64,000 nucleotides of DNA from Candidatus Omnitrophota bacterium (GCA_016928555.1 JAFGKM010000047.1:462-64461), one strand, 5' to 3'. Shown: positions 1-19,571, numbered from the stretch's first letter. Translations and numbers: made by a program. Notes: a model not told the origin generated them from the letters alone.

Positions 1-587
1 CGAAATCTAGCAACCGGATTTCTGGTAATTATATCCATCAACAGTAGGTATTTAACGGTTTTATCCGGTTTACTTTCAGTATGCCATTTCCAAATTGCCA
101 TAGGGAAAGCAGCTGCTCGGACAGGTAAATATGGAATATGGGCACCGAGAATACCCATGAAATTTTCGCTTAATGAAGAGTCTTGGCCAGTAGACACCTG
201 CTTTACATATCCGCAGGATATGGTAATAATGTCATTCCATTTGGCAGTATAAGTTTTGTTGCTTGAGTCAAGAAAAACAGTCAGCGTATCGGGAAGACAA
301 GCAATCTTTGTTATATTTAAAGCTTTAGGTATTTCTATCAGGCAGCTTTCGGGAACAATAAAACTACTGACGCCCATTCCTTTTAGCTTAGTTACCAATT
401 CTTCCGCTTTTTCTTTTGCAGTTCTGCGGCAAACAATTCCTTTTGTCTGTCCAGCCAGAAACAAGGCGTCTGCAAAAAGAATATCAAGAGTCGTTGCCAA
501 GGCATTGGCTAATTCTGGCACCTTTATGACCGGAGCCCACTCTTCCTGGATGACCGCAAATCCCTCCCGTTTTTCTTTGTCTTCCAT
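1..587 (-). CDS. hypothetical protein, 5' partial (N-terminal about 195 aa; gene continues beyond the window start)
   Basis: Uninterrupted minus-strand reading frame from ATG (revcomp of cat 585..587) to position 1: MEDKEKREGFAVIQEEWAPVIKV.... Absent from ORF track because it runs off the edge. The + strand ORF 256..633 is antisense to it. No recognisable domain by eye. Confidence 0.4.
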   Translation of the reverse strand, partial: MEDKEKREGFAVIQEEWAPVIKVPELANALATTLDILFADALFLAGQTKGIVCRRTAKEKAEELVTKLKGMGVSSFIVPESCLIEIPKALNITKIACLPDTLTVFLDSSNKTYTAKWNDIITISCGYVKQVSTGQDSSLSENFMGILGAHIPYLPVRAAAFPMAIWKWHTESKPDKTVKYLLLMDIITRNPVARF

Positions 588-791
588 TTTATTGGATTAT
601 ATCACTTTTACCAGCTATCCAAAATTTTACTGATCGACCGTTTTCATGCAAATTTAAATAGCAATCTAACAAAATAAATATCCAGATTTTTCAGCGAGAA
701 TTCATGCTGCACTCCTTAAAAAGGCAGCTGTAACATGTATCCCAGTCTTAAGTAGCTTATTGAGACAACAAGAGATGGAAAGAATTATTGT

Positions 792-1331
792 CTATTTTGG
801 AATCTGCCAAATCCATTTATAAATCGCCCAAATTGCTAACGCGATATAACCAGAAATGAAAAGCCCTGTAGTAAAGGAAGCAAAAGTTCGTGCCCGTATT
901 CCACCAAGACCTCCCCTAGATGCATCTGCTGAAGCTTTTCCTGATGTATATAGAGCAAGATTGCCGAGTTTGAGACGACTCTCATGCTCTCTCATTTTAG
1001 CGACATACATATTGTGATACTCCCATGCACGCCTTAGGGTTAAATGCCAAAGCAATGAATACAATACTCCGACAAAAGCTAAAGCTATAGTGAATAAGGG
1101 ATGCATTGCACTCCTGAAGTAACTGAGTACTGGAATGCCAGCACTATTCAATGCGATAAAAAGACTGGTTCTTGACCAAATCATCTGGCCCTCAGCAATT
1201 TTAATATTCGACACTACCTGATACGACGCTAATATTGAAGCTTCCTTTGTCTCGATATTGGAAGAATCTAATAATTTTCTGAGGTCAACGCTAATCTTTT
1301 CAAGCAAATCAAGAGTCCTATCATCAATCAT
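792..1331 (-). CDS. small membrane protein: about 50-aa N-terminal helical region plus 3 predicted TM helices; candidate effector partner of upstream ATPase
   Basis: ATG start with RBS AAGGGGGTG upstream. Hydrophobic segments about aa 51-72, 78-98, 150-172. Lies 34 bp downstream of the PHP-ATPase gene on the same strand. No catalytic motifs seen. Confidence 0.5.
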   Translation of the reverse strand: MIDDRTLDLLEKISVDLRKLLDSSNIETKEASILASYQVVSNIKIAEGQMIWSRTSLFIALNSAGIPVLSYFRSAMHPLFTIALAFVGVLYSLLWHLTLRRAWEYHNMYVAKMREHESRLKLGNLALYTSGKASADASRGGLGGIRARTFASFTTGLFISGYIALAIWAIYKWIWQIPK

Positions 1332-1365
1332 AGCACACCCCCTTATAAGTTAGAATTTTCAACTT

Positions 1366-4353
1366 TTATGACTTCCTGATATACTTTGTATCTCGTATTT
1401 CGAAAGCTGGCATTGTTCCTTCTAAAACATCAACAACTCTCTTATTTGTAGCTGGATTTTCAATGCTTCCAGCAGAATACCTGACTTGATTTAATTTTTT
1501 ATCCATCTGGGCATAAATAACCTGTTCGGCATCGCAAACTACTGCTAAATTGGGATTGTGTGTTACGGCGATAATTTGACGTTTCTGCTTAGCTTGTTTC
1601 ATATAGGGCACAAGCAAACTGTAAACAGACTCATTGTCTAGATTTTCCTCTGGCTGGTCAATTATAAGGGGTATATTGTCTCTATCAATCAGCAAATAAA
1701 AGATGAGTAACAAAGCACCTTTCTCGCCAGGAGACAATTCATTACTATTTAAATCTTTATTGTTGAACAGGACTTTGAATTTAACATCCAAATAGCCAAG
1801 CCCGAATAAGAAATCGTATAGTTTTATATTTTCTTCATCGCTTCCTCTGATTTGAGAGCGTAAGTCATTTTCCGTAGCTGGAGTTTTAGTTTTATCAAAA
1901 TTAAGATGCTCTATTAAATCATTGATAAAATTAATAATGGCCGTATCAGTTTTGAAATCGTATTTTGCTATTATACCGTCTAAAATATTTTGCCCATTCA
2001 CTATGTTTTGGAAACTCCCATCTCTATTACGATTGAGAAAGGTGAAAAAATCACTGGCAAAAGATTGCTTATCAAATGTAGTTCCAACGTCAAAACTTAA
2101 CATACTTCCGGATTTCTCCTGGGTCTTTTTTTCTTGCTTGATAAATTTAATTACTGGGCTGTATACTTCCTTATAAAAATCTATCTTTTTTATTAACTCT
2201 TGGTGTAGATTCTTCAATGCTTTAATACGTTCATTCTTTTCGGTTTCCAATTCCTTGGCAAGGTTTGATTTTATGTATTTAATTTCTTTCTCAATAGATT
2301 TGATGGTTTCCAATGAAGCATCGTCTTCTGCCCCTTCAATTTCTTTTTGCCTTGCTTTAAACTGGCAAACTTTTTCAATGTAGTCATCATATACTTTTTG
2401 TTCAGCAGTGAATGCCTTTGTTATTTCTTCTTTTTCGGTCTTGAGTTTTGCTTTCTTATTATAAAAACTAATCTTTGAGCTATTATCATCTTGTTCTAAT
2501 AAATAATCCAATCTCTTTTTTTCTTTTAATAATTCGTCTTCCTTTTGTGTGAGCATTGTATCATTTATCGTGAGCTTAATAAGTTCGGATAAATCGATGG
2601 AAAGCAAATCAGCATCCGTTTTCACCTTCTTCAACACTTCACTATGCTTGTCTTGTAATTGGCTTACTACACTTTTGATGTTGCCAAGTTTTGAAATCTT
2701 ATTATTTACATCTTTGAGGAACGTTTTTGCCTCCGAAATCTTCTTTTCAATATCTTCTAATTCTTTGGTTATTTTATCCAATTTTGCTTGATCTGATTCT
2801 GAAAGAGTGGATTTTGGTTTCTTCACTTCTTTCGGCTCGGTTAAAGCGTTTAGTTCTCGTCTTTTCTCATCTAGTTTATTAGTTAATCCGGCTAAATAGT
2901 CTTTCCTTTTCTTCTTTTCCATCATCACCATTTTCCTATTTATGGCGTTCAGTTCACTATGCAAGCAAGTTATCTTCTCCTCTACAGATTGAGTCTTAAT
3001 TTTGATTAATTCACTAAGTGTCAAAGCTCCAAGCCTACTTTCATCCGGAACATATGCAAAAATGACTTTTTCAATTTCTCGCTGAAATAAAGTGCTTACT
3101 CCAGTTTCATCACAAATTCTTTCAACAAACTTTTGTGGAAGGTATTTAACTTTTTCCACCTCGATGGCAGTATTAACCTCAGTGTTCAAATTAGCTTTTT
3201 CATTTGCTTGCCCATTTAACCATTTTAGGGTCGCTTCGTAATTTTCAGCCAAACCCCGCTTACGAAATTTACTTTTATTCAAAAAGGAATAGTCATTCGG
3301 ATCAATTTTGCTATTACCACAGCGACTAACTATGTCTGTAAAAGCACTCTTACCGCTGCCCTTACGACCAATCACAGCAATTAAACCATTATTTAATGGC
3401 AACTCATTATCAAACCATGAACCATTCTTGCCCTTGATTGAATTGACTTTGATTGAATCGATATATTTTGACCTATTTCCTTCAACCTCTAGAAGTTTAG
3501 GTGGCTTGAGTCCAATAAAAACTCTATCATGCGGTTCATTCTGCAATTGTTTAAGCCCCTCAAAAGTAGGATCAGCTTTTATCCAACAATACTTTTCGGC
3601 AGGATTGGATTTTTTATCTTTCAACTTCCCTACAGGATAGGTAGCTTCGTGAGAGTCACTACCTTTCATGCATGGTAATGGTTTCTCGAACCAATTCTTA
3701 TAGTCTTCTTCGTTGAATTTATTGTCTCTCCACAGAAAAAACTCGATTTGCTTTTCTGTAGAACTTCCAATGATGTCAGATTTCTTGATTAAACCCAATT
3801 TAAAAAAATTATCATTGGGATCTATATCGTCGATCCCACCATACTCGTCATAAGGCAACCAGATTAAAACCTCATTGCGGAGACCAAAAGTTTTCAAACT
3901 TTCTACAATCCCAAAAAAATCAACTGTGATTTTTTCTATATCTGGTTTGGGAATATTCCCGAGCTGGTCGTTATTACCTTGCGCATTATAGCAACTCAAG
4001 GAAGATAGCCAGATCTTTGCTCTTTTAAAAAAATCAGGATTGTTATTAAAAATCAGATGAAAGTTAATTTTTGCACCTTTCTGAATCGGTGTTCCTTTAC
4101 GGTTTGCCACAATATTATGCATACGAAGTTCTATAACGGGGAATAGAAACCTGTTTTTAATTCCACCCCTCTTTAAAATCTCTTCGTATCCTTCAAATGT
4201 ACAGTAGTCGTTAATACCCAAAACTTTCGCATCAGAAGCAGTCAATGTTTTTATAAGCTCGTCATAAGTTCCGATATAGCCAAATGAAGCTGGAGAATGA
4301 ATATGCAAATCCCACTTTTGCCACTCAGAACCTCGCGAAGACAAATTATTCAT
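1366..4353 (-). CDS. PHP-domain phosphoesterase fused to SMC/Rad50-like ABC ATPase with long coiled coil (995 aa); candidate anti-phage protein
   Basis: N-terminus WDLHIHSPAS...LGINDY (PHP family HxH motif). Walker A VIGRKGSGKSAFT at about aa 330. About 300 aa of K/E-rich heptad coiled coil. C-terminal ABC signature LSPGEKGALLL, Walker B LIIDQPEENLD, H-loop AVTHNP. Real ATG start. Confidence 0.7.
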   Translation of the reverse strand: MNNLSSRGSEWQKWDLHIHSPASFGYIGTYDELIKTLTASDAKVLGINDYCTFEGYEEILKRGGIKNRFLFPVIELRMHNIVANRKGTPIQKGAKINFHLIFNNNPDFFKRAKIWLSSLSCYNAQGNNDQLGNIPKPDIEKITVDFFGIVESLKTFGLRNEVLIWLPYDEYGGIDDIDPNDNFFKLGLIKKSDIIGSSTEKQIEFFLWRDNKFNEEDYKNWFEKPLPCMKGSDSHEATYPVGKLKDKKSNPAEKYCWIKADPTFEGLKQLQNEPHDRVFIGLKPPKLLEVEGNRSKYIDSIKVNSIKGKNGSWFDNELPLNNGLIAVIGRKGSGKSAFTDIVSRCGNSKIDPNDYSFLNKSKFRKRGLAENYEATLKWLNGQANEKANLNTEVNTAIEVEKVKYLPQKFVERICDETGVSTLFQREIEKVIFAYVPDESRLGALTLSELIKIKTQSVEEKITCLHSELNAINRKMVMMEKKKRKDYLAGLTNKLDEKRRELNALTEPKEVKKPKSTLSESDQAKLDKITKELEDIEKKISEAKTFLKDVNNKISKLGNIKSVVSQLQDKHSEVLKKVKTDADLLSIDLSELIKLTINDTMLTQKEDELLKEKKRLDYLLEQDDNSSKISFYNKKAKLKTEKEEITKAFTAEQKVYDDYIEKVCQFKARQKEIEGAEDDASLETIKSIEKEIKYIKSNLAKELETEKNERIKALKNLHQELIKKIDFYKEVYSPVIKFIKQEKKTQEKSGSMLSFDVGTTFDKQSFASDFFTFLNRNRDGSFQNIVNGQNILDGIIAKYDFKTDTAIINFINDLIEHLNFDKTKTPATENDLRSQIRGSDEENIKLYDFLFGLGYLDVKFKVLFNNKDLNSNELSPGEKGALLLIFYLLIDRDNIPLIIDQPEENLDNESVYSLLVPYMKQAKQKRQIIAVTHNPNLAVVCDAEQVIYAQMDKKLNQVRYSAGSIENPATNKRVVDVLEGTMPAFEIRDTKYIRKS

Positions 4354-4400
4354 AGCTATATTTTATCAAAATATCGTCATTTCAGCGATTTTTCTTGCGT

Positions 4401-6752
4401 TTAAAATTTTAAATCTTCCCAATCACTCCAATCGTTTCTCTCGCACTTAGCCCAGTTATATTTCTCTTTCTGGTTTATTTTCCATCTGCCGTTCTTTTCC
4501 AACACGATGCCGCCGAAAAAGTTCTTGCCTTGGTTGTTTTGCTCTTTAATATATTCTTGTAACTTTTCATTTTTCGCTTTCGTATATGTTTTGCCGTCAC
4601 GGTCCCCTGCTTCCTTCACCTCAAACACTCCTATCCGGCCGTCCGTTAATTGAACGAGATAATCGGGATAGAATGTATGTATAACTCCCTCCGGATATTC
4701 GTATTTAATTCCGAAATAATCTTTCTTGTTTTCGCCGTTTTTCCACCACCAGACAATTTTTCCGAAGTTTTCATTCAGAAATTTCTCAAACTGCTTTTCA
4801 GGAGTATACCTATCCACATTCAAATAGCATGGGTCATATACGTATTTCTTGCTATCAATTTTTTCATCAGCGTGTTTGTTATAAAAACTCTTCGGTGCAA
4901 TTTCGAATTCATACCATTGTTCGCTCTCTTCTATTTTTTTCTTGATTTCCTGTCCACGGATTGTTTTGTATTTTTCAATGGCATCCGCCAGAACCCTCTC
5001 AAACTGTCTTCTGTTTCCGTTATGTAAAAAAATCATCTGTACGAGAATAGCCTCTTCCGGCCAATCCTTTGCACCGAGATATTTCCTGAACCAGGAATAA
5101 ATTGCGGTCTTTACTTTCGGCACCGATCTTTTGATATTTTTGAACGAACCGAGATTGTTTTTGATGACCTGTTCAAATAGGGCCTGCAGGTCATTTCCCG
5201 CAATGGTCAGACGAGCAAAAGCATCGGCATCAATCTTACCCTCAATTTCATCAAAAACCTTTGCGTCAATCTTCGCATCAGTAATAATATCCTGTTGATA
5301 TTCCTTGATGTCAAGAATCATACCCGTCTGTTCCAGTTTCTCGATATTTTGACTGGGGAAAATATGATCGCCTTTCAGGCCGAAGTACTTACAGGATACT
5401 TCTTCGAATACCGGCGTAAAACTTGACGTAATATCGCCATAATCGGCACGTGACTTATAATAGGAAATAATGTTTGTCGGTTTGTATGCCGCAACGCGCT
5501 TGGCCGGTAGATGCTTAATTATGTTCGGATTGTATTCTTCTTTTTTAACAATAATGCTTTGAACATTCGTGTAAATATAGCCGATATTAAGGGGTTCGCT
5601 GGCATAATGCTTCTGTTCCGGCATTCTCAAAATACGCCCGACCGTCTGAATTTCAAAAGTTTCACTGTGAGACTCCCGGAATTTTACCAAAATATGGGCA
5701 CGCGGGCAGTCCCATCCGGTATCAATAGCCTGTTTGAAGATAAGAAATTCAATTTCATTATCCAAATCCTTGACCCATTCTTTCTTGGGACCCAAAGCGG
5801 CTGATTTTTCATCTGCTGTCCAAATTGCAAGTTTACGATTTTTCTCCGTTATGCCTTTGCGCGTCAAGAATTCTTTAACTGCTTTTATTTTATCCTCTCC
5901 CGCTTCCGCGGTCGGTATCTGAACAAGGGTAAGAGGATTTACAATAGATTTCTCGGCCTCAAAAAGTTTTTTCAGTTCTTTGCGCTTCTGATATGCCGCT
6001 TCCATGACTATTTCTTGGGAGTCAGTTTCGTTATTGCCGATTTCGTCTATTTTTTCGTTAATAATTAATTCTTTTTTAATCATCCCACTATTTATAACTT
6101 CTGCTGGTTCAATAAAAATAAATCCTGCCATACCTCGAGCCATATCACGCGGGTCAGGTTGAATCTTTGGCGTCGCACTCATCTCTAAAATAACGTCTGC
6201 ATTTATTTCCTCGCGCAGTTCGTTTGTACGTTCAGCTGTTGCTCCAATATGACTTTCGTCTATGATTAAAATGATTTTCCGTTGTTCTTTTGTTTTTACC
6301 AGAACATCGCGAAAATTCTTTCCATCACCGTCTTTCATCAAAACATTTTTCCAATCTCCGGTCCGACGATCCTTGCTTCGCAATTTTTCCCAATTTGCTA
6401 CCGCTATCTCGTTTTTTACAATCCGTTCGCGTCCGCCGGTAAATTCTTCTTCAACAAGCGATACTCTTGGCGCTCCTCCGAAAATTTCCTCCAGACAACG
6501 TTTACTCTGTAAATGTAAATCACCCTTACCTATACTTACCCATATGAAGCATAAATTTTCATAAACCAATTCTTTTATAATCTCTTCAATAAATTTTGCG
6601 GTCATTATAGTTTTTCCGCTACCGGTAGGGGCCTGAAAAACACATACTTTTTTCTGCCCTTCTTTTTCAAGCAGACCTTTTACAGTACTGACAAGTTCTT
6701 CAACGGCTTTTTCCTGATAGGGTTTCAGTTCAATATTCATAAATTTGCTCAT
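4401..6752 (-). CDS. res: Type III restriction enzyme Res subunit (SF2 helicase plus C-terminal PD-(D/E)xK nuclease)
   Basis: Motif I QAPTGSGKT, motif II LIIDESH (DEAH). C-terminal FYPDYLVQL...GVFEVKEAGD nuclease-like motif. Start overlaps mod stop by 23 nt (operon). Confidence 0.8.
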   Translation of the reverse strand: MSKFMNIELKPYQEKAVEELVSTVKGLLEKEGQKKVCVFQAPTGSGKTIMTAKFIEEIIKELVYENLCFIWVSIGKGDLHLQSKRCLEEIFGGAPRVSLVEEEFTGGRERIVKNEIAVANWEKLRSKDRRTGDWKNVLMKDGDGKNFRDVLVKTKEQRKIILIIDESHIGATAERTNELREEINADVILEMSATPKIQPDPRDMARGMAGFIFIEPAEVINSGMIKKELIINEKIDEIGNNETDSQEIVMEAAYQKRKELKKLFEAEKSIVNPLTLVQIPTAEAGEDKIKAVKEFLTRKGITEKNRKLAIWTADEKSAALGPKKEWVKDLDNEIEFLIFKQAIDTGWDCPRAHILVKFRESHSETFEIQTVGRILRMPEQKHYASEPLNIGYIYTNVQSIIVKKEEYNPNIIKHLPAKRVAAYKPTNIISYYKSRADYGDITSSFTPVFEEVSCKYFGLKGDHIFPSQNIEKLEQTGMILDIKEYQQDIITDAKIDAKVFDEIEGKIDADAFARLTIAGNDLQALFEQVIKNNLGSFKNIKRSVPKVKTAIYSWFRKYLGAKDWPEEAILVQMIFLHNGNRRQFERVLADAIEKYKTIRGQEIKKKIEESEQWYEFEIAPKSFYNKHADEKIDSKKYVYDPCYLNVDRYTPEKQFEKFLNENFGKIVWWWKNGENKKDYFGIKYEYPEGVIHTFYPDYLVQLTDGRIGVFEVKEAGDRDGKTYTKAKNEKLQEYIKEQNNQGKNFFGGIVLEKNGRWKINQKEKYNWAKCERNDWSDWEDLKF

Positions 6753-8430
6753 AAATGTCTAAAATTTTCTGAGGAATGGGTTCCAGTTTCACATTCTTCC
6801 AGTTGGCAAAATCCTCCTTATCCAACCCGAGGGGATCCAGAGTAAAACAGTAAAGCGTTTTCTCTCCAACCATGTTGTCTAAATTCCTTTTAAGTTCTGA
6901 AAGTCCTTCATGTTCTAAAGCATAGTATATTGCCATTATGTGTCCGTTCTGCTCAAAAATCCGGTAATCCTGCTCTTTTCTCTTTTCCTCAAAAATTCCC
7001 TCGCGTAAACAGAGCATTTCCGTACATTCCCTGGTAATTCTTATTTTTAAATCATCTCTGCTGATGGATTTTTTAACAAAAGATGTCTTGAAATATTTCA
7101 GATTTCCTCCAAGCCCTTCAATTCCTTCTCCTTTTGGTATTTTATAGCCCTTTATTGCTTTCTGTATGCGCGGATAACATGCATCAATGCAAATATTCTC
7201 TTCGTTGTTGGTACAAAGAATAAACTGGCGATTGCTACCGTCCTTTTGTTTGTTTAGTTTTAAAATAGCATGACCGGTTGTTCCTGATCCCGCGAAAAAA
7301 TCAAGGCATATAATAGACTTACTGCGTATCATTTCTATTATCATTTGTATTAAAGCTGTTGGCTTCGGGTTAGAAAAATTGATTCCCATTTCCTTCAACT
7401 CTTTAGTTCCACTACTGTTAATTACTTCGGTTATTAAGTTCTTAAACGGAGCTCCGCGTTCAATAGCATTCCCCTCGTTGTCAGCAAACATATAGTTTTT
7501 ATAGCAAACAGACCAGCCACTTGCCTTTGTTTTTGATTTTCTAAATTCTAAATAGCCATTTTCTTCTGCCCATTTAATTTTCTCTTTCCCCCACTTCCAT
7601 GTCCACCCATCATTTTTAAATTTTGTTCGACCATTCGGAAAGGTCATTTTTCCATTTGGAGTCTTGATTGCATAATTTAACGAATCACTATAACGAAGAC
7701 CACCACGATCAAGGTTGTCAATATAATAGGCACCCCGCTCCTTAAAAAACTCATCTTTGTATTTGTATCTTTCTATATTATATGAATCATAATTTTGCGA
7801 AAAAATATCTCTCCACCTTTCTACTAAATTATTTTTACAATAAACTAAAATATATTCAGTAATGGTCGCGATTCCTTTTGCGTCTGATGCTCCAGTTTTC
7901 CTTCGCCATATAATTGGACTTACAAAGTTTTGCTCTCCAAATATTTCATCGCAAAGCAGTTTTAACTGTGCAATTTCATTATCATCTATTGAGATAAATA
8001 TAACGCCGTCATCTTTCAATAAATTTTTTGCCAATCGCAAACGCTTACTCATAAACGAAAGCCATTTGCTATGGCGATATGCGTCTTCTTTATCCACATA
8101 ATCGTCGTTGTATTTAAAATCTTTATTTCCCGTGTTATACGGCGGATCAATGTAAATAACATCAATTTTGCGTTGGTGGGTGTAATTCAAGACAGATAGA
8201 GCGTGATAGTTGTCGCCTTCAATCAAAATGTTCGTCGGCTTTTTGATGTCGGTTTTGATTTCCTTGCCTTTGACTTCTCTCAAAACTGGCAAGGCGTTTT
8301 CTGATTCTTTTTCAAATTGCTCTTTAGTTTTTTCTTCATCCCAGACAATACCGTATTTCTTACGGGATTCCAATTTCTCAATAATTTTGAGAAGGTCGTT
8401 TTTTTCTATCTTTGAATAATCTTTAGCCAT
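6730..8430 (-). CDS. mod: Type III R-M Mod subunit, N6-adenine DNA methyltransferase
   Basis: Motif IV IYIDPPYNTG, SAM-binding FFAGSGTTGHA. Immediately upstream of and overlapping res. Confidence 0.8.
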   Translation of the reverse strand: MAKDYSKIEKNDLLKIIEKLESRKKYGIVWDEEKTKEQFEKESENALPVLREVKGKEIKTDIKKPTNILIEGDNYHALSVLNYTHQRKIDVIYIDPPYNTGNKDFKYNDDYVDKEDAYRHSKWLSFMSKRLRLAKNLLKDDGVIFISIDDNEIAQLKLLCDEIFGEQNFVSPIIWRRKTGASDAKGIATITEYILVYCKNNLVERWRDIFSQNYDSYNIERYKYKDEFFKERGAYYIDNLDRGGLRYSDSLNYAIKTPNGKMTFPNGRTKFKNDGWTWKWGKEKIKWAEENGYLEFRKSKTKASGWSVCYKNYMFADNEGNAIERGAPFKNLITEVINSSGTKELKEMGINFSNPKPTALIQMIIEMIRSKSIICLDFFAGSGTTGHAILKLNKQKDGSNRQFILCTNNEENICIDACYPRIQKAIKGYKIPKGEGIEGLGGNLKYFKTSFVKKSISRDDLKIRITRECTEMLCLREGIFEEKRKEQDYRIFEQNGHIMAIYYALEHEGLSELKRNLDNMVGEKTLYCFTLDPLGLDKEDFANWKNVKLEPIPQKILDIYEQIYEY

Positions 8431-8711
8431 TAGTTAATTAACTTGCAAGGTAATATTTATTATCCTTCTTCACAAAGCAAATTTGTTTTTCTGATTTTTC
8501 ATTATAGCACTTTACGAAACGAACCCCAAAACAGAAACAATCATTTTTTTTCGAATAAAAAGAGCCAATGCAAGAGATTGCCATTGGCTCGTAAAACGAT
8601 TCACTCGGAAACGATTTCTTCTTTCGGTTCTTTCAGTCTCTTCATGTACTCCTCAATCGCTCAGTTGAATATAATACTATAGTAAAGACCCTATATAGGA
8701 ATGGAAAAAAC

Positions 8712-9476
8712 TTATGTAATATTGATAATACCTTTGCATTGAGGGTATTTTGAGCATCCCCAGAATTTTTTGCCTGAATTCTGCCCTTTTTTAACTTCCC
8801 GCAAGACCATAGGACTTCCGCATCTCGGGCATAAATTGGCCGCCTTTTTCTCTTCGGCAATCTGACGGACGTGCTTTACATGTTCCCGCTCAGTCTTTAA
8901 GGATGGAGTTAATCTTCCCTCTTCAATCTTAGCTGTAATTTCAGAAACTTCAGATTCGGTAAATACCTGTTCGGTCTTGGACTTTATAAAACGGGCTAAC
9001 TCACCTCCGCCGCTGGTAACGTTTTCCGGCATATCTGTTTTAAATTCGCTTTCTCCGGCAAACGCAACCACTGAATATATCTGTTTATCATTTAGTCCGA
9101 GCAATGCCTGAAGGGTTTTAACGTGCTTGTAGTTCTGGTGCAGGGGATTCTGGAATTCGCCTGTATGGCTGTAAATTTTCTGGGTCCATGTTTTCTGGTC
9201 CGCGGAACCAAAAATCCAGCCTTTCATGTTTTTCGTTTCAACCACAAAGATTCCATATACCGAAAGAATTATATGGTCGATTTGAGTTGTCCCATTTTCG
9301 GTGGGCAGAGTGACATTGTTTATAATGCGGTACTTGTCTTTATCCAGCAGCATCTTGAAGGAGAGCCTTACTGTTCCTTCTCCAAATCGCCCTTTAAACC
9401 ATGGGGATTTAAGGAAAACTCCTAATGCAATGAAGGCACCCAAAATTAAATAAAGTTTTAAAATGGCACCGGTCAT
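8712..9476 (-). CDS. NERD domain protein with N-terminal TM helix and C-terminal topoisomerase-type C4 zinc ribbon
   Basis: N-terminal hydrophobic helix. NERD-like core GEGTV...DHIILSVYGIFVVETKNMKG. C-terminus CPRCGSPMVLREV...WGCSKYPQCKG (zf-C4 topoisomerase type). Confidence 0.65.
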   Translation of the reverse strand: MTGAILKLYLILGAFIALGVFLKSPWFKGRFGEGTVRLSFKMLLDKDKYRIINNVTLPTENGTTQIDHIILSVYGIFVVETKNMKGWIFGSADQKTWTQKIYSHTGEFQNPLHQNYKHVKTLQALLGLNDKQIYSVVAFAGESEFKTDMPENVTSGGGELARFIKSKTEQVFTESEVSEITAKIEEGRLTPSLKTEREHVKHVRQIAEEKKAANLCPRCGSPMVLREVKKGQNSGKKFWGCSKYPQCKGIINIT

Positions 9477-9671
9477 AATAGCTCCTCCTGTATAGGCTGC
9501 AGAATATATAATTGAAATATCTTAACTTATAAGCATACAAAGTCAAAATCAGTATTCTACTACCAACAGGAGTTGATGATCTCGGTGGAATCCGTACAGC
9601 AGTATATCTTAATGTTGTTAACATTTTTATAGTAAACGTTTTAAGTGAAATTATAAATTTTGCATGAAAAC

Positions 9672-9700
9672 TTGACAAATTGAAAAAGTGGTTGTATAAT
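9672..9700 (+). promoter_or_regulatory. consensus sigma70 promoter (TTGACA, 17 nt spacer, TATAAT) driving the xis-like/int operon
   Basis: TTGACA at 9672..9677 and TATAAT at 9695..9700 with exact 17-nt spacer. RBS GGGAGGTGA and ATG at 9721 follow. Confidence 0.55.
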
Positions 9701-9720
9701 GTTTGCGGGAGGTGAGAATC

Positions 9721-10656
9721 ATGGTTCTAAGAGAAAGAACGCGTATTGGTAAAAAGGAAGTGGCGCTCTGGCAGTATGCACTGAGGGTTTTCAGGGAGGA
9801 TATGTACTGGTCGCGCGAGCAGTTGGCACAGTACATTGGGGTTTCGACGAGAAGTATTGTTTATTGGGAAGAGGGGCAAGAACCTGGCTTAAGGGCCCAA
9901 GCAAAATTGGTTATGGCTTTACAGGAATTACCAGTGCAGATAGAAAGAATGTCTAAAAGGTTTTTTTCGCGTTTTTTTCCGGCAACAGCTATGCTTACCG
10001 GGGAAGAAATCATAAAAATTCTTGAAAGCAAAGGTCTCGATAAGAAGATAAAAAGTGTTTTGGCAGAAGAAATGCCCGAAATTGCAGACCTCCCCTTCCG
10101 TGAGGCACTGTATGTCTGTTCACAGAAAAAACCGGAGCTTGAGGACGGGTACATGCAGAACCGGGAAGCTGAGCAGTACGTAAAATTGCAGAAAGTTTAT
10201 ACCGCACTTAAGGGAAAAAAGAAAAATCCGGGAGTGTCTTTTGCAAGGCGGAAAGCGCCGGAAAGCAAGAAACCGGTGGCGGGAAAAGGAAGGGGCGGAC
10301 AAAGACGCAAGACAAAAGATCCTGGCGGGGGAGACGACGAAGGAGGCTCAGATTCAGATGGTGACTCTTCTGAAACAGGAGACGAGGATGTATGGCTTGA
10401 TATCGGGCAACTTGCACGGTATCTTAATATCAAGGAATCAACATTGTACTCGTGGGCAGAAAGCAAGTTTATACCAAGTTACAAATTAGGAAGGTTACGG
10501 CGATTTAATAAAGGGGAAATTGATTCATGGATAAAGCAACGCGGAAATCATGACGGAAATTCCCCGACGTTCATTGACAATTTGACAAGGGATTTGCGGA
10601 AAACCAGACCCGGCTACAGGGTCAACCACAAGGAGGTTGACAATGGCTCTTTTTAA
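9721..10656 (+). CDS. DNA-binding protein with N-terminal XRE-like HTH, low-complexity K/G/D/E linker, and C-terminal excisionase/AlpA-type HTH
   Basis: ORF track start 9703 is TTG; the first ATG with RBS is 9721. C-terminal WLDIGQLARYLNIKESTLYSWAESKFIPSYKLGRLRRF resembles excisionase/MerR-type HTH_17. Overlaps the integrase start. Confidence 0.6.
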   Translation: MVLRERTRIGKKEVALWQYALRVFREDMYWSREQLAQYIGVSTRSIVYWEEGQEPGLRAQAKLVMALQELPVQIERMSKRFFSRFFPATAMLTGEEIIKILESKGLDKKIKSVLAEEMPEIADLPFREALYVCSQKKPELEDGYMQNREAEQYVKLQKVYTALKGKKKNPGVSFARRKAPESKKPVAGKGRGGQRRKTKDPGGGDDEGGSDSDGDSSETGDEDVWLDIGQLARYLNIKESTLYSWAESKFIPSYKLGRLRRFNKGEIDSWIKQRGNHDGNSPTFIDNLTRDLRKTRPGYRVNHKEVDNGSF

Positions 10657-11716
10657 ACGAGGCCGGTTTTACTGGTTTTCCAAGAATATCGGAGGGAAGC
10701 ATTATCGGGAGTCTACCGGTTGCGCGGAACGCAATGAAGCAGAGGTGTTCTACGCTAAATGGTTGCTGAAGCATAACCATGTGCCTCCACAGACAGAGAA
10801 TTTATACCAGCGACCACAGGCGAGTTCTTTAACGCTTGAGCAATTGGTGGACAAGTGTTTCAAGCATCGTTCCTTCAGCAAGCTTGCTCTGCAATCTCAA
10901 AGAAGGTACAGAACTTCTGCAAAACTCTTCTTGGACAAGTTAGGCAATCTCCCGGCAGACGAGATTACTACCGATATGCTGGAGGATATTCAGAAAGACC
11001 GCCTAGCAGAAGGGATAAATACATCCACCATAGACAGAGATTTTGCTTTTTTACGCCATCTCTTTAACTGGGGGATTGACCATGAATATTGCAAAAAGAA
11101 CCCAGTTAAAAACTGGCTCTTTGAAAAGGCAAACAATGCTCGGACCAGGCGGCTTTCTGATGAAGAAGAGAATCTGATCCTTGCGGAAATGAAGAAAGAA
11201 AACCTTAACGGGTTTTTAACCATAACCGTTTTGGGACTATACACCAGGGGCAGGAGAGCGGAAATAACAAACCTGCGGCGCAAGAATATAGACCTTGAAG
11301 AGAGAACGATTACATACGAGGTGACGAAAAACAAGACGCCTCGGGTTGAGCCTCTCTGCCAAATTGCCTATATGACACTTGAAGCCTGGCTAAAGGACAA
11401 AAACTTCTCTCCTCAAGACTATATTTTCCCGGGCATCACACCTGACAGAGTAACCAGAATCTTCATCCGGATAACCAGGAAGCTGGGTATAAAAGATCTC
11501 CGGTTTCATGACACCGGAAAGACTTTTACGAACCGGCTTATAGAAGCTAAGGCAGATATCTACAGCGTGAGCAAGCTTTCTGGACATAAGAGCATTTCGG
11601 TTCTGGAGAAGTACTATCTTAATCCCAGAATACTGCCCTCTCTCAGTGAAGAAGTGGCAAAACTGGACAGGAATCTGTCACAATTTGTCACAATTTTGGA
11701 GTCCGGGAAGAAATGA
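10643..11716 (+). CDS. int: tyrosine site-specific integrase (phage integrase family)
   Basis: N-terminal RGRFYWFS...KHYRESTG arm-binding-like region. C-terminal catalytic LRFHDTGKTF (HxxR) and GHKSISVLEKYY (catalytic Tyr). RBS AAGGAGG 7 nt before ATG 10643 (track start 10637 is TTG). Adjacent to the tRNA-Thr 3' end. Confidence 0.85.
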   Translation: MALFKRGRFYWFSKNIGGKHYRESTGCAERNEAEVFYAKWLLKHNHVPPQTENLYQRPQASSLTLEQLVDKCFKHRSFSKLALQSQRRYRTSAKLFLDKLGNLPADEITTDMLEDIQKDRLAEGINTSTIDRDFAFLRHLFNWGIDHEYCKKNPVKNWLFEKANNARTRRLSDEEENLILAEMKKENLNGFLTITVLGLYTRGRRAEITNLRRKNIDLEERTITYEVTKNKTPRVEPLCQIAYMTLEAWLKDKNFSPQDYIFPGITPDRVTRIFIRITRKLGIKDLRFHDTGKTFTNRLIEAKADIYSVSKLSGHKSISVLEKYYLNPRILPSLSEEVAKLDRNLSQFVTILESGKK

Positions 11717-11765
11717 AAAAGGAAGGTTTTGCAGATGCAAATGCATGACGTACAACAACTTAATT

Positions 11766-11840
11766 TGGAGCCCATGGTCGGACTTGAACCGACGACCCGC
11801 GCATTACGAATGCGCTGCTCTGCCGCTGAGCTACACGGGC
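11766..11840 (-). tRNA. tRNA-Thr(CGU)
   Basis: Revcomp gives GCCCGTGTAGCTCAGCGGCAGAGCAGCGCATTCGTAATGCGCGGGTCGTCGGTTCAAGTCCGACCATGGGCTCCA. Cloverleaf with anticodon loop TTCGTAA (CGT), T-loop GGTTCAAGTCC, CCA encoded. Confidence 0.85.
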
Positions 11841-11900
11841 TAAGTGTTTTAGTGAGGGTTATATTATAAAACTTTTCAGGCAGGAGGGCAATTAAAATTA

Positions 11901-13043
11901 TCACGCATCATTAACAAAAATATCTGCGTATTTTTTATACACGTACGATTTATCATACGTTCTTTTCGGATCACGATCATGTAAAATGCCAAGACCAATA
12001 AAACGGTCAATAAGATTTTGCGCACCGGCACGCGTAAATCCGGTCCATTTCTGGATTCTCGCAACGTTCACAATGGGCATTCTGTAAAGTTGCGGAAGTA
12101 CCTTAATGGCACTTTCCGATGAACGTTTACTCAGGGATTGGATTTTCAGCATATCTTGTTCCCGCAATTTGGTGATATCAAGAACCGTATGAATTGCTTC
12201 ATTGGCAATTTCTTCAACCCCGTCAAGGAAAAATTCAATCCACTCTTCAACATCTCCATCGTGATATTTATCAAGACAATCATAATATACCTTCTGATGC
12301 TTCTTGAAATATGAAGACAAGAAAAGCATCGGTTTTTCAAGAAGCTTTTCTCTCCAGAGGTAAAACGTAATAAGCATCCGGCCTGTACGCCCGTTGCCAT
12401 CCAGAAAAGGATGAATTGTTTCAAATTGCGCGTGAAGAAGTCCTGCTTTTATCAAAGGCAAAACATCGTCTTTTGCATGAAGGAATTTTTCCAAATCATT
12501 CAGGGAACGCTCCATATCGGTAACCGGTGGCGGTACAAAATGAGCATTGCTCGGTCTTGTCCCGCCTACCCAATTCTGGCTGCTGCGAAATTCCCCGGGA
12601 TTTGCAAATTGAGTTGCCCGTGCACCTTTCATTAACTCCTTATGTAATTCCTTAAGAAAACGCAAACAGAAAGGGAATTTTTTCAATCGTTCCAAACCAT
12701 AGTTGAGGGCTTTAATGTAATGCAGAATATCATCCACGTCCGCAGGAATGTCTGAACTAACATTGGCTTCTGCTTCAATGGCGTTAATTATTGTCGCTTT
12801 CGTTCCTTCAATCTGGCTTGACGATGCCGCATCTTTTCTTATGTACATAAACAAGAAGAAATCCATGTCCGGCAAAAGCTGGGTGATGCCGTCCAATTTT
12901 CCAAGTAATCGGATAGCCGTATCATTCTTTCTCTCTATCGCGCGGGAAAAATGAAATCCGCCCTTAGGAGGAAAGAGATAAGGGATGAAAGCCTCGAACC
13001 CACTTTTCTGTCGTCGTAATTCGCCTATTAGTATTTTTTCCAT
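11901..13043 (-). CDS. fic: Fic family protein (AMPylator/Fic-DOC), class II with N-terminal inhibitory motif
   Basis: Fic motif HPFLDGNGRTGR. N-terminal SxxIEG (SSSQIEGT) inhibitory-helix motif. ATG start. Confidence 0.85.
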   Translation of the reverse strand: MEKILIGELRRQKSGFEAFIPYLFPPKGGFHFSRAIERKNDTAIRLLGKLDGITQLLPDMDFFLFMYIRKDAASSSQIEGTKATIINAIEAEANVSSDIPADVDDILHYIKALNYGLERLKKFPFCLRFLKELHKELMKGARATQFANPGEFRSSQNWVGGTRPSNAHFVPPPVTDMERSLNDLEKFLHAKDDVLPLIKAGLLHAQFETIHPFLDGNGRTGRMLITFYLWREKLLEKPMLFLSSYFKKHQKVYYDCLDKYHDGDVEEWIEFFLDGVEEIANEAIHTVLDITKLREQDMLKIQSLSKRSSESAIKVLPQLYRMPIVNVARIQKWTGFTRAGAQNLIDRFIGLGILHDRDPKRTYDKSYVYKKYADIFVNDA

Positions 13044-13045
13044 AG

Positions 13046-13120
13046 TTTGTTTACATCTTTATTAACTTGTAAAGAAAGTATATCTCTTTGTTTACATCTT
13101 GTCAAGATTGTAAAGAAAGT
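13046..13120. repeat. two tandem imperfect 34-bp repeats (TTTGTTTACATCTT...TTGTAAAGAAAGT) in the fic upstream region
   Basis: Unit 1 13046..13079 and unit 2 13087..13120 share TTTGTTTACATCTT at the 5' end and TTGTAAAGAAAGT at the 3' end. Located between the fic start and the IS3 left end. Confidence 0.5.
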
Positions 13121-13185
13121 GTGAGCTTTACCTGATTTTATAGACACGAAGGGTATAGTAAAATAAGAGAGAAAAGAGGCCCTTC

Positions 13186-13446
13186 GTGAAAAGATATGAT
13201 GAAGAGTTTCAGAAAGACGCGGTAGAGATGCTGATTAACGAAGACCGGTCTTTAAGGCAGCTTGCCAGAGAGTTGGGAGTAAGTCCCCAGACATTACGCA
13301 ACTGGAAAGACGTATATCTGGGCAAGAAAGCCCGTCAATCAGGCAAAGAGATAGCAGATGTGAAGCAGACGTATGAGGAATTGCGGAAGTTAAAGGTAGA
13401 GAACGCTACCTTAAAGCGGCAGCGGGACATCTTAAAAAAGCATTGA
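13186..13446 (+). CDS. IS3-family transposase OrfA (HTH)
   Basis: VKRYDEEFQKDAVEMLINEDRSLRQLARELGVSPQTLRNWK typical IS3/IS911 OrfA. Ends at slippery A6G (13434..13440) followed by TGA. Confidence 0.75.
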   Translation: MKRYDEEFQKDAVEMLINEDRSLRQLARELGVSPQTLRNWKDVYLGKKARQSGKEIADVKQTYEELRKLKVENATLKRQRDILKKH

Positions 13447-13480
13447 GCATACTCTCGGAACCGCCGGCAGGAGGTATGCG

Positions 13481-14369
13481 TTGATAGAGAAGCTGGCGGC
13501 AGAAGCAAGCATAGCAGAGTTATGCAGTCTGTTCAATGCAGCCCGCAGCGGATATTACGCATGGAAGAAACGCGGTCTGGGCAAACGGAGAAAGGAAAAC
13601 GCTCTCTTAAAGGAAGAAATACGAGGCATCCACAAAGAGAGTGACGAAAACTACGGTTCTCCGAGAATAACTCCGGAACTGAAGAATAAGGGTTATAGAT
13701 GCGGCCATAACAGAGTGGCAAGGCTGATAGGAGTTGGGGATAAAAGGTGCCTTAAAACGCAAATTCAGGCCCAGGACGACCGACAGCAGACATGCCTTAC
13801 CGGTAAGCCCTAATCTTCTCAAAGAAATTCCGGCAGTGACAGAACCGGACCGGGCATGGGTATCGGATATAACCTATATCAAGACAGATGAGGGATGGTT
13901 GTATCTGGCAGCGATAATGGACCTTTGGTCCCGCAGGATTGTAGGATGGCAGGCTTCCGAGAATCTGAAGTCTGAACTGGTAACGGATGCGTTACAGAAG
14001 GCAATTGATATGCGGCGTCCGAACAAGGGTCTGATTTATCATTCGGACAGGGGTGTACAGTATGCAAGCCAGGTATGCCGGAATATTCTTCAATCGGCAG
14101 ATATAGCCAGCAGCATGACGAAATCCGGCAATTGTTACGACAATGCCGCCATGGAATCGTTTTGGAGTACACTGAAGACAGAGATGGTATACCGCAGGAG
14201 ATTGGAGAGCCGCAGGGATGCGCGGCTTGCGTTGTTTAATTACATTGAGGTATTCTATAACAGAAAGCGGTTACATAGTGCGCTGGGATATCGTTCCCCG
14301 GAACAGTTTGAATCCCGGCATAAACGCTACAGTTTTACTGTACCACAGGTGTCTATAATTTCGGGGTAA
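13481..14369 (+). pseudogene. IS3-family transposase OrfB (HTH_21 plus DDE rve core) split over two frames; likely inactivated or carrying homopolymer indel(s)
   Basis: 13481..13813 (frame 2) carries an IS3 OrfB N-terminal-like region (IAELCSLFNAARSGYYAWKKRG...); its first codon is TTG, not ATG. 13734..14369 (frame 0) carries the rve core PDRAWVSDITYI...HSDRGVQYAS...NCYDNAAMESFW. Frame switch occurs at a G4 run about 13733..13737. The N-terminal segment is +1, not -1, relative to orfA. Confidence 0.6.
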
Positions 14370-14451
14370 TTCCTGTTCCAGTTCATCAAGGCCGTCGGGC
14401 TTGCCTAAAATCAGATATTTCAGCCATTCTATCAGTTCCTGCAGGGTCATT

Positions 14452-14712
14452 TTATTTTTTCTGTCCTGCCATGCAGCACAAAGCCCAAACGGAAATTGCA
14501 AGCCCTATCAACAAGAAAAGCCAAAGCACGGAGTCTTTATTCATAAGCGGCATTCTGTCGAGCAATATCCACATGCTCCTGAAAATAAAAACGCTCCCGA
14601 TTATTAAAACCATTTCCGCAAGGATCAGCTTTTTCGCTTTCATGTTTACTATGTTATACCTACTATGGCTGCAATTGCAACTATTACGGATGCTTGAAGT
14701 GATTTCTCTCAT
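14452..14712 (-). CDS. small hypothetical membrane protein (2 TM)
   Basis: 86-aa ORF with two hydrophobic helices. No homology recognisable by eye. Confidence 0.3.
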   Translation of the reverse strand: MREITSSIRNSCNCSHSRYNIVNMKAKKLILAEMVLIIGSVFIFRSMWILLDRMPLMNKDSVLWLFLLIGLAISVWALCCMAGQKK

Positions 14713-14747
14713 AAATTATTTCCGCCTTTAGCCGGGCGGGATAGAAA

Positions 14748-15344
14748 TCAGGTTCCATCAAGTCTCTGCCAGTATTCAATCCATGTATCGGAAGAATATC
14801 TTTTTACGGCGTTCAACCACCCTGCTGAGCCGTCGCTGTAACCGGCAACCACTCCATACCTGTGGGCGGTCATGCCTTCTTCAGGAAATTCAACATCGCT
14901 TATAAGAGCCTTCTTGCCTGCCGATTCATCTAATTCACCGGAACCTCTGACATAATAACTGCTTCTGCTTGTAAAACCGGGCTCTTCAAAATTCTGAAAG
15001 CCGAAATCGGGATTATCCCTTTTGTAATATCTCTGGCTCGGGCAATAAATAATTGCGGGGTTTTGCAGGTACTCCGGTATCAGCCTTCCAACTGATACCT
15101 TCTCGTCCAAATACCATATGTCGTTTGTCGTAACGCTTTCATGGAAAACTTTCCCGCCGTGATTCTGAGCGAACATATGCGCCGAAAAAAATATCTGCTT
15201 TATATTGTTTATACAGACCGTCCTTCGCGCCTGCTCCCTCGCCCTGTTTAAAGCAGGGAGAAGCAGTGCGGCAAGTACGGCTATAATGAAGATAACCACC
15301 AGCAGTTCGATTAGCGTAAATCCTTTATTTTTTTTCCGTTCCAT
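14748..15344 (-). CDS. prepilin-type N-terminal cleavage/methylation domain protein of the DUF1559 (H-X9-DG) family
   Basis: [45 protein letters not shown] is the canonical DUF1559 N-terminus. C-terminal AGYSDGSAG. Family is hugely expanded in Planctomycetes/PVC. Confidence 0.7.
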
Positions 15345-15419
15345 CTTTTTCTCATACCGCGGAAACTGCCTTTTTTGAAATGTTTATCAAGCCGGCCGTT
15401 TCCTGCCTTTTCCCTTGAA

Positions 15420-15740
15420 TCAAAATGTAACGACCCTATCGCTTTCCTTGACTATATCATACATATCCTTCATAGTACTTAGGGGACACATCTCGCTGCC
15501 CTCTTGGTTTCGCGTCTTGATGCAGGAACCGCAGGCTAAAATCTTTCCTCCCAATTCCATGAATTTTTCCACCTGTTCGACCGTATTGAATTTTTCAGCG
15601 CTTATCGTTTGATATTCAACGCCCTTACCCATGAAAAATATTTTTACTTCTTCTTTTTGTCCAAGGCAAAAGTTAGCATAGCGCAATGCGTTCCAGCATG
15701 TTTCCGGGTCATTACTCGAAATAATAACTCCTATCTTCAT
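15420..15740 (-). CDS. DsrE/DsrF-like family protein
   Basis: MKIGVIISSNDPETCWNALRYANF...ACGSCIKTRN...CPLSTMKDMYDIV. Start placed at internal ATG (MKIGVII); the longer ORF is an unsupported N-terminal extension. Confidence 0.5.
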   Translation of the reverse strand: MKIGVIISSNDPETCWNALRYANFCLGQKEEVKIFFMGKGVEYQTISAEKFNTVEQVEKFMELGGKILACGSCIKTRNQEGSEMCPLSTMKDMYDIVKESDRVVTF

Positions 15741-15868
15741 TTTCCATGCCTCCCTTGATAGTTTAAAACGGATGTGGGCTTTATAGTATTCTTCCCCGGG
15801 TGCATCTTCCGCGTTCACTTCCGAACCACAAAAAGAACAAGGTCAATTCTGATGATACAATCTTTTTG

Positions 15869-16606
15869 CTACAATATCCAATTCCGCCGGATATTTCTCA
15901 AACTCATCTGGAAAAGAATAGTACAGAAAGCTATCAGCATAAAAAAATTAAAAGCAAGCGGCATATGTCCCGCCCGCTGGAAAGAAAAATGCAAGATATC
16001 CGCTCCGTATGTAAGCGGCATAATGTAGGAAAGCGGCTTTAGAAAAACGGGCAGTTGTTCTATTGGAAAAAACAGTCCGCAAAGGAAAAGCATTGGGAAA
16101 CGTATGAAATTGGAAAAGGTCTGGGCTTCAAAAACTTCGCTTACAGACACTGCTACGAAAAGTCCGAGAAAAGTGGAACTTATCGCTATGAGAACTATTG
16201 CAGGTATAAGAGTTATCCAGTTAACGCCTGAAAGGTCTGTGAAGAAAGCAGCCATAATAACGGGGACAAAAGCATTGACTATGCCGAATATTATGGCGCC
16301 GGTAGTTTTGGCAAGCATAAGCAGTTCAAGTGAAATCGGCGCCAGAAGAAGACGCTCAAACGACCGTCCTTTCTTTTCAAAAGTTATGGTTACGGAGAGC
16401 AGGCTTGTCGTGCCGAATAAAACGGAAATGGCGACAACGCCGGGGAGAAGTCCGGGTATGCTGTCAAGACCCTGCCCCGACCTCATGAAAAACATTCCGG
16501 TCCATGCAAGAGGGAAAATAATTCCCCAGCTTATGTTGGGCGGTTTAAGATAATAGGACCGGGTATCTTTCAGCAGTATGCTCCAGAATGCCGTGTTTGA
16601 CTTCAT
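15869..16606 (-). CDS. ABC-2 type transporter permease
   Basis: 245 aa, 6 hydrophobic helices. Overlaps upstream ATPase gene by 4 nt. Confidence 0.7.
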   Translation of the reverse strand: MKSNTAFWSILLKDTRSYYLKPPNISWGIIFPLAWTGMFFMRSGQGLDSIPGLLPGVVAISVLFGTTSLLSVTITFEKKGRSFERLLLAPISLELLMLAKTTGAIIFGIVNAFVPVIMAAFFTDLSGVNWITLIPAIVLIAISSTFLGLFVAVSVSEVFEAQTFSNFIRFPMLFLCGLFFPIEQLPVFLKPLSYIMPLTYGADILHFSFQRAGHMPLAFNFFMLIAFCTILFQMSLRNIRRNWIL

Positions 16607-18266: not shown

Positions 18267-18306
18267 TTTAGCCTCTCCGCATCAAGAAAATGCAGCCATT
18301 GATGAT

Positions 18307-18618: not shown

Positions 18619-18630
18619 TTTATCCCCCTG

Positions 18631-19446: not shown

Positions 19447-19571
19447 GTTTCCCTCCGTTTTGTTTTTGAAAGGTATTATATCATACCATTAAAAAACCTA
19501 TTCCGAAAAACGGGTTTGCCAGTCAATCCGGTTTATACTAAAATTAGCATGCAGATTTAAAGAGAGTTTTC

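Follow-up and report, generated by a model that had tools for sequence, protein, structure and literature searches.

Genomic islands of the lambda/P4 type, integrated at tRNA genes, are the closest described counterparts of the locus reported here. In such islands an integrase gene lies by the 3′ end of a tRNA gene, an excisionase-type helix-turn-helix (HTH) gene stands upstream of it, the composition is foreign, and variable defence cargo, absent beside the same tRNA elsewhere, is found behind a conserved recombination module. We found these traits at the left end of a stretch of 64,000 nt (hereafter the window) from a metagenome-assembled genome (MAG) of Candidatus Omnitrophica (locus tags JW957_; the source contig measures 65,632 bp, with at most 1.6 kb beyond the window). 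Positions 1..11765, together with a stretch to their left, very probably belong to a genomic island that measures at least 12 kb and is integrated at the 3′ end of the tRNA-Thr(CGU) gene; they form its tRNA-proximal part. Three traits depart from the lambda/P4 scheme, namely a very rare integrase lineage, an unusually long Cro/CI-excisionase fusion of 311 aa and a non-canonical Arg-II position in the integrase. The element itself is a well-known, ordinary kind of mobile defence island.

The largest cargo gene has described counterparts of its own. Its family, TrlF, owes its name to the temperature-restriction locus (TRL) trlR-trlF-trlG of Photorhabdus laumondii, where TrlF is annotated as a histidinol phosphatase (PMC7554251). 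No temperature-tolerance mutation was mapped to trlF in Photorhabdus and no function was assigned to it (PMC7554251). In Yersinia ruckeri pYR3, genes for Type I methyltransferases are interspersed in the TRL locus (PMC7554251). The nearest characterised analogue of TrlF is Ppl, a single-gene anti-phage PHP exonuclease/NTPase of E. coli (PMC12904381).

Short-read contigs assembled from the same sequencing run (Logan contigs, SRR13394437) extend the view, one of them (L001) adding 284 nt to the left of the window. The features of the island and of its target, numbered from the first letter of the window, are the following.

1..587, minus strand, running off the window edge: edge gene, 282 aa in full, first 195 codons in the window (translation and Logan contig L001)
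792..1331, minus strand: 8xMP membrane protein, 179 aa (PF24838)
1366..4353, minus strand: TrlF-family protein, 995 aa (NF045780)
4401..6752, minus strand: Res-like superfamily 2 (SF2) helicase, 783 aa (ResIII)
6730..8430, minus strand: Mod, Type III beta-class N6_N4 DNA methyltransferase, 566 aa (N6_N4_Mtase, MTase_III)
8712..9476, minus strand: NERD and Zn_ribbon_Top1 protein, 254 aa (Pfam)
9672..9700, plus strand: sigma-70 promoter, TTGACA-17-TATAAT (12/12 consensus matches)
9721..10656, plus strand: dual-HTH protein, 311 aa (HTH_3, HTH_17, TIGR01764)
10643..11716, plus strand: tyrosine integrase, 357 aa (Phage_integrase, Int_N, phrog_1)
11763..11767, no strand: island-chromosome junction, attL boundary (L082 blastn and L085-L089 flank alignment)
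11766..11840, minus strand: tRNA-Thr(CGU), integration target (ARAGORN, Rfam 65.8 bits)

Every gene named in the original prediction, which was made from the sequence alone, is present, and small corrections only were needed. Its proposal of a tRNA-integrated architecture is likewise upheld. Beyond the gene content, this reading stands on the deviating base composition, on a sister element that combines the same module with other cargo, on contigs that carry the same tRNA without the island, and on a junction placed at the tRNA 3′ end.

Outside the island, the window looks like an ordinary chromosome of the Planctomycetes-Verrucomicrobia-Chlamydiae (PVC) group, with genes for DUF1559 prepilin-like proteins, ABC transporters, a photolyase and sugar-phosphate isomerases. 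The G+C content (GC) of the cargo (1..9657) is 0.371, against 0.459 in the rest of the window (14401..64000), where the lowest value of any 9.7-kb stretch is 0.443. The integrase module, at 0.448, is host-like, and the 282-aa edge gene is intermediate, at 0.416. All cargo genes lie on the minus strand, opposite to the integrase module, and follow one another with gaps of 34-281 nt or with overlaps.

The integrase belongs to a very rare lineage. Among 5.8 billion proteins, it has a single homologue above 32% identity, which is 68% identical and is encoded on contig L082. There, the integrase gene is preceded by a dual-HTH gene whose 310-aa product is 77% identical to the 311-aa protein of the window. 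At the DNA level (blastn), the two elements are 77% identical over 9658..11762 (2.1 kb) and nowhere else, the similarity starting at 9658, just upstream of the promoter. The L082 cargo is wholly different, and consists of a complete Type I restriction-modification (R-M) system, an NB-ARC/TPR STAND NTPase and two unknown genes. A more distant relative, on contig L083, has a 32%-identical integrase and the same layout, an excisionase gene followed by an integrase gene that is convergent with a tRNA-Gly 71 nt away.

The module shared with L082 opens with a promoter, TTGACA-17-TATAAT (9672..9700), which agrees with the consensus at 12/12 positions. Promoter-like matches are not rare in the region overall (8 seen versus 6.4 expected); this one is found unchanged in the sister element, where the hexamers, their spacing and the GGAGG ribosome-binding site are all kept. 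The dual-HTH gene likely starts at ATG 9721, after this GGAGG, rather than at TTG 9703, and overlaps the integrase start by 14 nt. Its product matches HTH_3 at the N-terminus (2e-7, Cro/CI-type), HTH_17 (8.5e-15) and the TIGR01764 excise family (2.4e-13), in keeping with the excisionase-type HTH gene with a perfect −35/−10 promoter that had been announced ahead of the integrase. From these matches, the protein is a putative regulator and recombination directionality factor. Between its HTH domains runs a charged, low-complexity Gly/Asp-rich linker (KKPVAGKGRGGQRRKTKDPGGGDDEGGSDSDGDSSETGDED; residues ~170-225, window 10230..10420), a character that is kept in the sister element and is unusual for an excisionase. 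The integrase itself matches Phage_integrase (6e-20), Int_N and the PHROG integrase family phrog_1 (2.5e-50). A second promoter match lies on the minus strand at 9650..9678 (11/12), back-to-back with the HTH promoter and with the −35 region in common; the NERD gene and the cargo could be transcribed from it. It was not counted among the conserved elements of the module, since its −10 hexamer is not kept in L082.

Could this be the integrase-proximal end of a prophage or of a phage satellite, with the defence genes as accessory 'moron' genes? An excisionase gene followed by an integrase gene beside attL is a lambda-like layout, the integrase and the HTH protein match the phage families phrog_1 and phrog_66, and the NERD protein matches phrog_21557. 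Such an origin is nevertheless improbable, as the 12 kb available here hold no structural, replication or packaging genes, the 10 kb of L082 hold none either, all being R-M and STAND genes, and IMG/VR contains no close integrase, the closest being at most 31% identical.

How precisely can the edge of the island be placed? The tRNA-Thr(CGU) gene is the single tRNA gene of the window (ARAGORN, Rfam). The integrase gene, which had been described as ending about 50 bp from its 3′ end, is convergent with it and stops 49 nt away (stop at 11716, tRNA 3′ end at 11766). Similarity to L082 stops at 11762 (blastn), and identity with the island-free tRNA loci L085-L089 begins at 11768, two bases within the mature 3′ end (flank alignment). 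The junction therefore lies within 11763..11767, at the tRNA 3′ end. A genomically encoded CCA was found in the window only, on island-side DNA; the tRNAs of the relatives measure 73 nt and have no encoded CCA.

These relatives are five contigs retrieved from Joint Genome Institute (JGI) metagenomes with a 28-mer of the tRNA 3′ end; the full 75-nt tRNA as query gave no match in the same metagenomes. The tRNA-Thr(CGU) of L087-L089 is identical to that of the window over 73 nt, that of L086 has one difference, and that of L085 is a T-stem variant. No integrase gene and no cargo gene of the window was found on the tRNA 3′ side in L085-L089, and L087/L088 and L089 have a convergent TupA-like ATP-grasp gene in common there. 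They are analogues of the empty site whose relatedness is known from the tRNA only, not proven empty sites of the same lineage. The comparison with an island-free relative that had been suggested thus yielded the same tRNA without an island on its 3′ side, but not a shared flanking synteny. In L085, the 3′ end of the tRNA recurs as a partial copy of 33 nt, which lies 130 nt downstream of the full gene and has the alternative T-stem sequence. Such a copy is a typical integration scar, and shows that scars of this kind occur at this tRNA in the clade. In addition, a different excisionase-integrase pair, co-directional with the same tRNA-Thr, lies upstream of it in L085 and L087, where about 10 nt separate its stop codon from the 5′ end of the tRNA; in L088 an integrase C-terminus was seen by a tblastx match only. 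The tRNA-Thr(CGU) gene is used by at least two integrase lineages of different geometry. The stretches concerned are given below.

L085, 138..176 and 306..378: tRNA-related stretches
L085, 387..1749: excisionase-integrase pair
L087, 1261..1905: excisionase-integrase pair
L088, 335..514: integrase C-terminus of the pair

Several observations weigh against the island reading and are considered together here. The first concerns the far end. We searched for a second copy of the tRNA 3′ end by exact match, with up to 3 mismatches and with a sliding 45-mer, shuffled sequences serving as control. In the window and its Logan extension nothing exceeded the shuffled controls: no match above chance was found in −283..9700, no repeat in −283..11765, and no copy elsewhere in the 64-kb window. 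Moreover, the left boundary is not visible in the window, and the last 22 nt of L001, beyond the 282-aa gene, contain no att. We believe that the repeat is missing because the contig ends too soon; attR would be a second copy of the tRNA-Thr 3′ segment, TGGAGCCCATGGTCGGACTTGAACC..., to the left of the window. The original prediction had placed the far end and its direct repeat outside the window, and a second copy of the tRNA 3′ end is indeed absent from the window; the leftward extension that it proposed gave 284 nt and the full edge gene, but no repeat.

The second point concerns the integrase. The catalytic R204, K229, H289 and H315 show no variation in the alignment, and a Tyr is present in KYYL. 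In the canonical Arg-II column stands Gly292, and the next residue, an Arg in the 68%-identical sister, is Lys293 here. Judged from this alignment, the integrase of the present copy may be weakened and its activity is uncertain. This substitution, and the failure to find an att repeat in the available 12 kb, would fit an immobilised remnant, acquired by integration and now unable to excise, with an impaired integrase and a far att perhaps lost. We regard this fate as rather unlikely, since the integrase and dual-HTH open reading frames (ORFs) are intact and under purifying selection relative to the sister (dN/dS 0.22 and 0.14, respectively), the promoter and the ribosome-binding site are perfectly conserved, and the end of the contig simply explains the missing att.

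The third point concerns the target. The L082 element is followed by non-tRNA sequence; target choice therefore varies, and the integrase lineage is not strictly specific for tRNA-Thr. In addition, neither tRNA flank of the window is syntenic with those of the island-free contigs.

The fourth point concerns the join between island and chromosome. A Logan contig from the same run stops within the tRNA at 11796, 31 nt in, and the join seen in the MAG contig is therefore without independent support. An att duplication, a polymorphism between occupied and empty sites, or other genomes with the same tRNA would explain this stop. It would also be expected of an assembly chimera, in which two organisms of the metagenome with the same tRNA-Thr sequence would have provided, one the island side and the other the chromosomal side; identical tRNAs do occur in several distinct contigs, and GC differs across the two sides. 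A chimera is very improbable in our view, given that the tRNA-adjacent integrase module has the GC of the host (0.448) and that the NCBI contig spans the tRNA. Even in that case, a tRNA-Thr of a related organism would be the anchor of the island.

The last point concerns the leftmost gene. The gene that had been reported to run off the window edge (587..<1) does so, and is complete on L001 at 7568-8416, where it encodes 282 aa; the next gene is coupled to it via an ATGA overlap. We found no Pfam, PHROG, PADLOC or PDB match for the protein, and the family is rare, with 39 representatives at E≤1e-3 among 1.8 billion, and too divergent in its alignment to serve for scanning loci. Distant relatives (21-27% identity) occur in housekeeping-looking settings, after rho, beside bipA and before a DUF3592 gene. 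From their sequences they look like an unannotated conserved family of 250-300 aa, and their positions are the following.

L172, 3953..4720: distant relative of the 282-aa protein
L171, 8001..8804: distant relative of the 282-aa protein
L173, 914..1762: distant relative of the 282-aa protein

Such core-like contexts make the cargo status of the edge gene uncertain, and the left boundary of the island could therefore be nearer.

We still hold the integrated island to be the best account of the locus, and its cargo is described in these terms. The 995-aa protein is TrlF. It scores 597.9 bits against NF045780 (cutoff 350), residues 7-991 aligning with positions 1-943 of the 944 of the profile, and is composed of an N-terminal PHP phosphoesterase and an SMC/Rad50-like ABC ATPase head, the two halves of which are separated by a coiled coil of ~300 aa. 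Residues D15, H17 and H19, the Walker A segment G329-S336, the signature S874-G876-E877 and the Walker B segment D899-Q900-P901 are invariant in 24 homologues. The PHP domain is marginal in Pfam (E 0.2); we nevertheless assign it, because D15, H17 and H19 are invariant and because the fold search agrees. Indeed, the N-terminus of the AlphaFold2 model (pLDDT 84) matches the PHP domains of RNase AM (7ug9, TM-score by target length 0.62), PolC and PolIII, and Foldseek matches the model to the heads of SMC, MukB, JetC, LmuB and Rad50. Both parts of the PHP/SMC-like ATPase that had been proposed are thus supported, whereas the 'module' is a single stand-alone TrlF gene with no conserved partner.

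With the TrlF of P. laumondii, our protein shares the NF045780 equivalog (598 bits) and its large size, and the interleaving of TRL and Type I methyltransferase genes in pYR3 echoes the R-M linkage of the window's gene. Unlike in Photorhabdus, no TrlG gene (AlbA_2 and HATPase_c_4) is found in window 1..13000, and TrlG-type domains occur in 2-3 of 120 immediate TrlF neighbours. The company of TrlR and TrlG is a feature of the Photorhabdus operon, not a requirement of the TrlF family. With Ppl, the similarity lies in the union of a PHP nuclease domain and an ABC/SMC-type NTPase in one polypeptide, in the residence in defence islands and in the C-terminal ATPase lobe (PADLOC Ppl 5.7e-17, NF042955 84.3 bits). 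However, this score falls far short of the cutoff of 1000 and only residues 829-987 align; TrlF is a separate, distantly related family with a long coiled-coil insertion.

Relatives of TrlF were found in at least 475 stretches of a species-representative genome collection, and we surveyed the neighbourhood of the gene in 80 genomes from many phyla. Neither clustering of the neighbours nor Pfam counts revealed a conserved neighbour in these 80 genomes; no homologue of the 8xMP or 282-aa protein was found near TrlF, and for NERD there was one weak match. The immediate neighbours are enriched in parts of Type I and Type III R-M systems, Fic, YhcG, Schlafen/HATPase_c_4 (TrlG-like) and HEPN domains, and an R-M-like gene lies within 6 kb of TrlF at 23 of the 80 loci. 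The three closest relatives that were looked up (56-57% identity) have large serine recombinases within a few kb, and CBASS, Bub and Type II or Type III-like R-M genes in their surroundings; the small ORFs downstream of them are unrelated to 8xMP. TrlF is thus a stand-alone mobile cargo of defence islands, often found beside restriction systems. In one contig with a 57%-identical TrlF (L174), 1..8500 and 12483..18101 form a dense defence island, with a ThiF/Multi_ubiq/BubE ubiquitin-like system, SMODS and SLATT genes (CBASS-like), a NYN nuclease, a large serine recombinase and a XamI/Eco57I-type R-M pair.

The remaining cargo includes a Type III R-M pair. Mod, which carries the DPPY motif, matches N6_N4_Mtase (2.8e-40), PADLOC MTase_III (3.4e-91) and the Mod proteins of EcoP15I (3e-42) and Helicobacter (7e-49); on these matches we consider it a solid Type III methyltransferase. 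Its stop overlaps the start of Res by 23 nt. In Res the helicase core is clear (ResIII 8.9e-21) and aligns with that of the TrlF-adjacent Res in L002, which carries PF19778. The match to Type III Res models is weak, PADLOC REase_III reaching 5e-16 over a part only and EcoP15I Res 2e-5. No nuclease domain was found in a Pfam search of Res; a putative C-terminal PD-(D/E)xK motif, FYPDY...FEVK, was read from the sequence by eye. The locus thus resembles EcoP15I in its homologous Mod, in the overlapping order of mod then res and in the SF2 helicase core of Res, and differs from it in a short Res (783 versus 970 aa) that matches only around helicase motif VI. Of the complete, overlapping mod-res pair that had been proposed, Mod, the overlap and the Res helicase stand, while Res fits the Type III models weakly.

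The gene described as encoding NERD and a topoisomerase zinc finger does so (NERD 2.3e-33; Zn_ribbon_Top1 3.3e-10, C-terminal). Its product has a hydrophobic N-terminal segment (1-24), which serves as membrane anchor, and matches over its full length phrog_21557 (2.9e-39), a phage family without known function. Located 34 nt downstream of TrlF, the 8xMP gene encodes a protein that scores 38.7 bits against PF24838 (cutoff 30) over 133 of the 136 profile positions. It had been called a 3-TM protein, and a membrane protein it is, although two hydrophobic segments are strong (75-99 and 152-170) and the third (~52-72) is weaker. A word-based homologue search with this protein returned only itself, and a literature search for '8xMP' or 'octameric membrane protein' gave nothing relevant. 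The Type III R-M pair is the only recognised defence system in the cargo. NERD, TrlF and the HTH protein have sub-threshold or domain-level defence matches in PADLOC or NCBIfam, and the 8xMP and 282-aa genes have none; the idea of stacked defence genes is supported with this qualification.

Do the NERD, Mod, Res, TrlF and 8xMP genes rather form one composite defence system, of the BREX or MADS type? They share one strand and either overlap or stand 34-281 nt apart, TrlF often adjoins R-M genes, and the locus has the domain types of these systems (an excisionase-like HTH, NERD, a methyltransferase, an SMC-like ATPase and a helicase), with domain-level MADS matches of the HTH protein to MAD1, of NERD to MAD6 and of TrlF to mad3 and mad8. 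We think it improbable all the same. The MADS/BREX scores are far under the curated cutoffs (MAD1 58.2 versus 80, MAD6 33.1 versus 460), and no kinase, PglZ or BrxC-type component is present. Moreover, TrlF does not keep this gene set in other genomes, where its neighbours range from Type I, II or III R-M, CBASS or Fic genes to none at all, and where the near absence of NERD, 8xMP and 282-aa homologues noted above also argues against a fixed composite. A MADS or BREX identity was itself rejected, as it rests on sub-threshold scores, the mad3 and mad8 matches being partial.

On the other side of the target, directly upstream of the tRNA, lies a Fic-domain gene (11901..13043, minus strand) that matches PADLOC SoFic over its full length (1.2e-108) and is below the NCBIfam SoFic cutoff (145 versus 550 bits). 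Fic genes recur beside TrlF in other genomes. The other contigs that carry this tRNA lack the gene, and the tRNA 5′ side therefore also holds accessory or defence DNA. An apparently interrupted IS3-family element (13122..14369) has a 211-aa rve ORF and a short ORF that resembles orfA; 395 nt of it (13122..13515) are 89% identical to part of contig L087. Further into the window, at 26001..28000, possibly in another small acquired segment, GC falls to 0.397 versus ~0.46 around it, over a 413-aa ORF at 26906..28147.

From the features of the island, we infer both its recombination activity and the defence function of each cargo gene, and propose the following course. The integrase would have recombined an attP bearing the tRNA 3′ segment with the chromosomal tRNA-Thr gene, leaving itself adjoining a rebuilt, intact tRNA. 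The dual-HTH protein would control expression, and probably the direction of recombination too. In a first line of defence, Mod would methylate the host DNA, and Res would translocate on and cut unmodified DNA. TrlF would probably act in a Ppl- or SbcCD-like manner, as an ATP-gated, SMC-type sensor that recognises foreign DNA or DNA ends and has its PHP exonuclease in the same polypeptide, and the NERD protein would be a membrane-tethered nuclease. More speculatively, and with little confidence, the TrlF-family PHP-SMC proteins might be widespread restriction-linked nucleases of a second line, which would sense the failure of R-M or foreign DNA ends and degrade DNA, like PrrC/RloC beside Type I systems, and the 8xMP and 282-aa operon might be a new membrane-acting effector module.

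In conclusion, the window and L082 together are a clean natural example of cargo being exchanged while the promoter-HTH-integrase module in front of it is conserved, and this example comes from the poorly studied, uncultured phylum Omnitrophica. The NERD/Zn-ribbon protein, the 8xMP protein and the orphan 282-aa family, found here in a defence context, are candidates for screening. As for TrlF, the island adds genomic context to a large PHP-SMC fusion whose family is widespread and without assigned function. An anti-phage role of the family becomes testable through its repeated occurrence next to R-M systems and recombinases.

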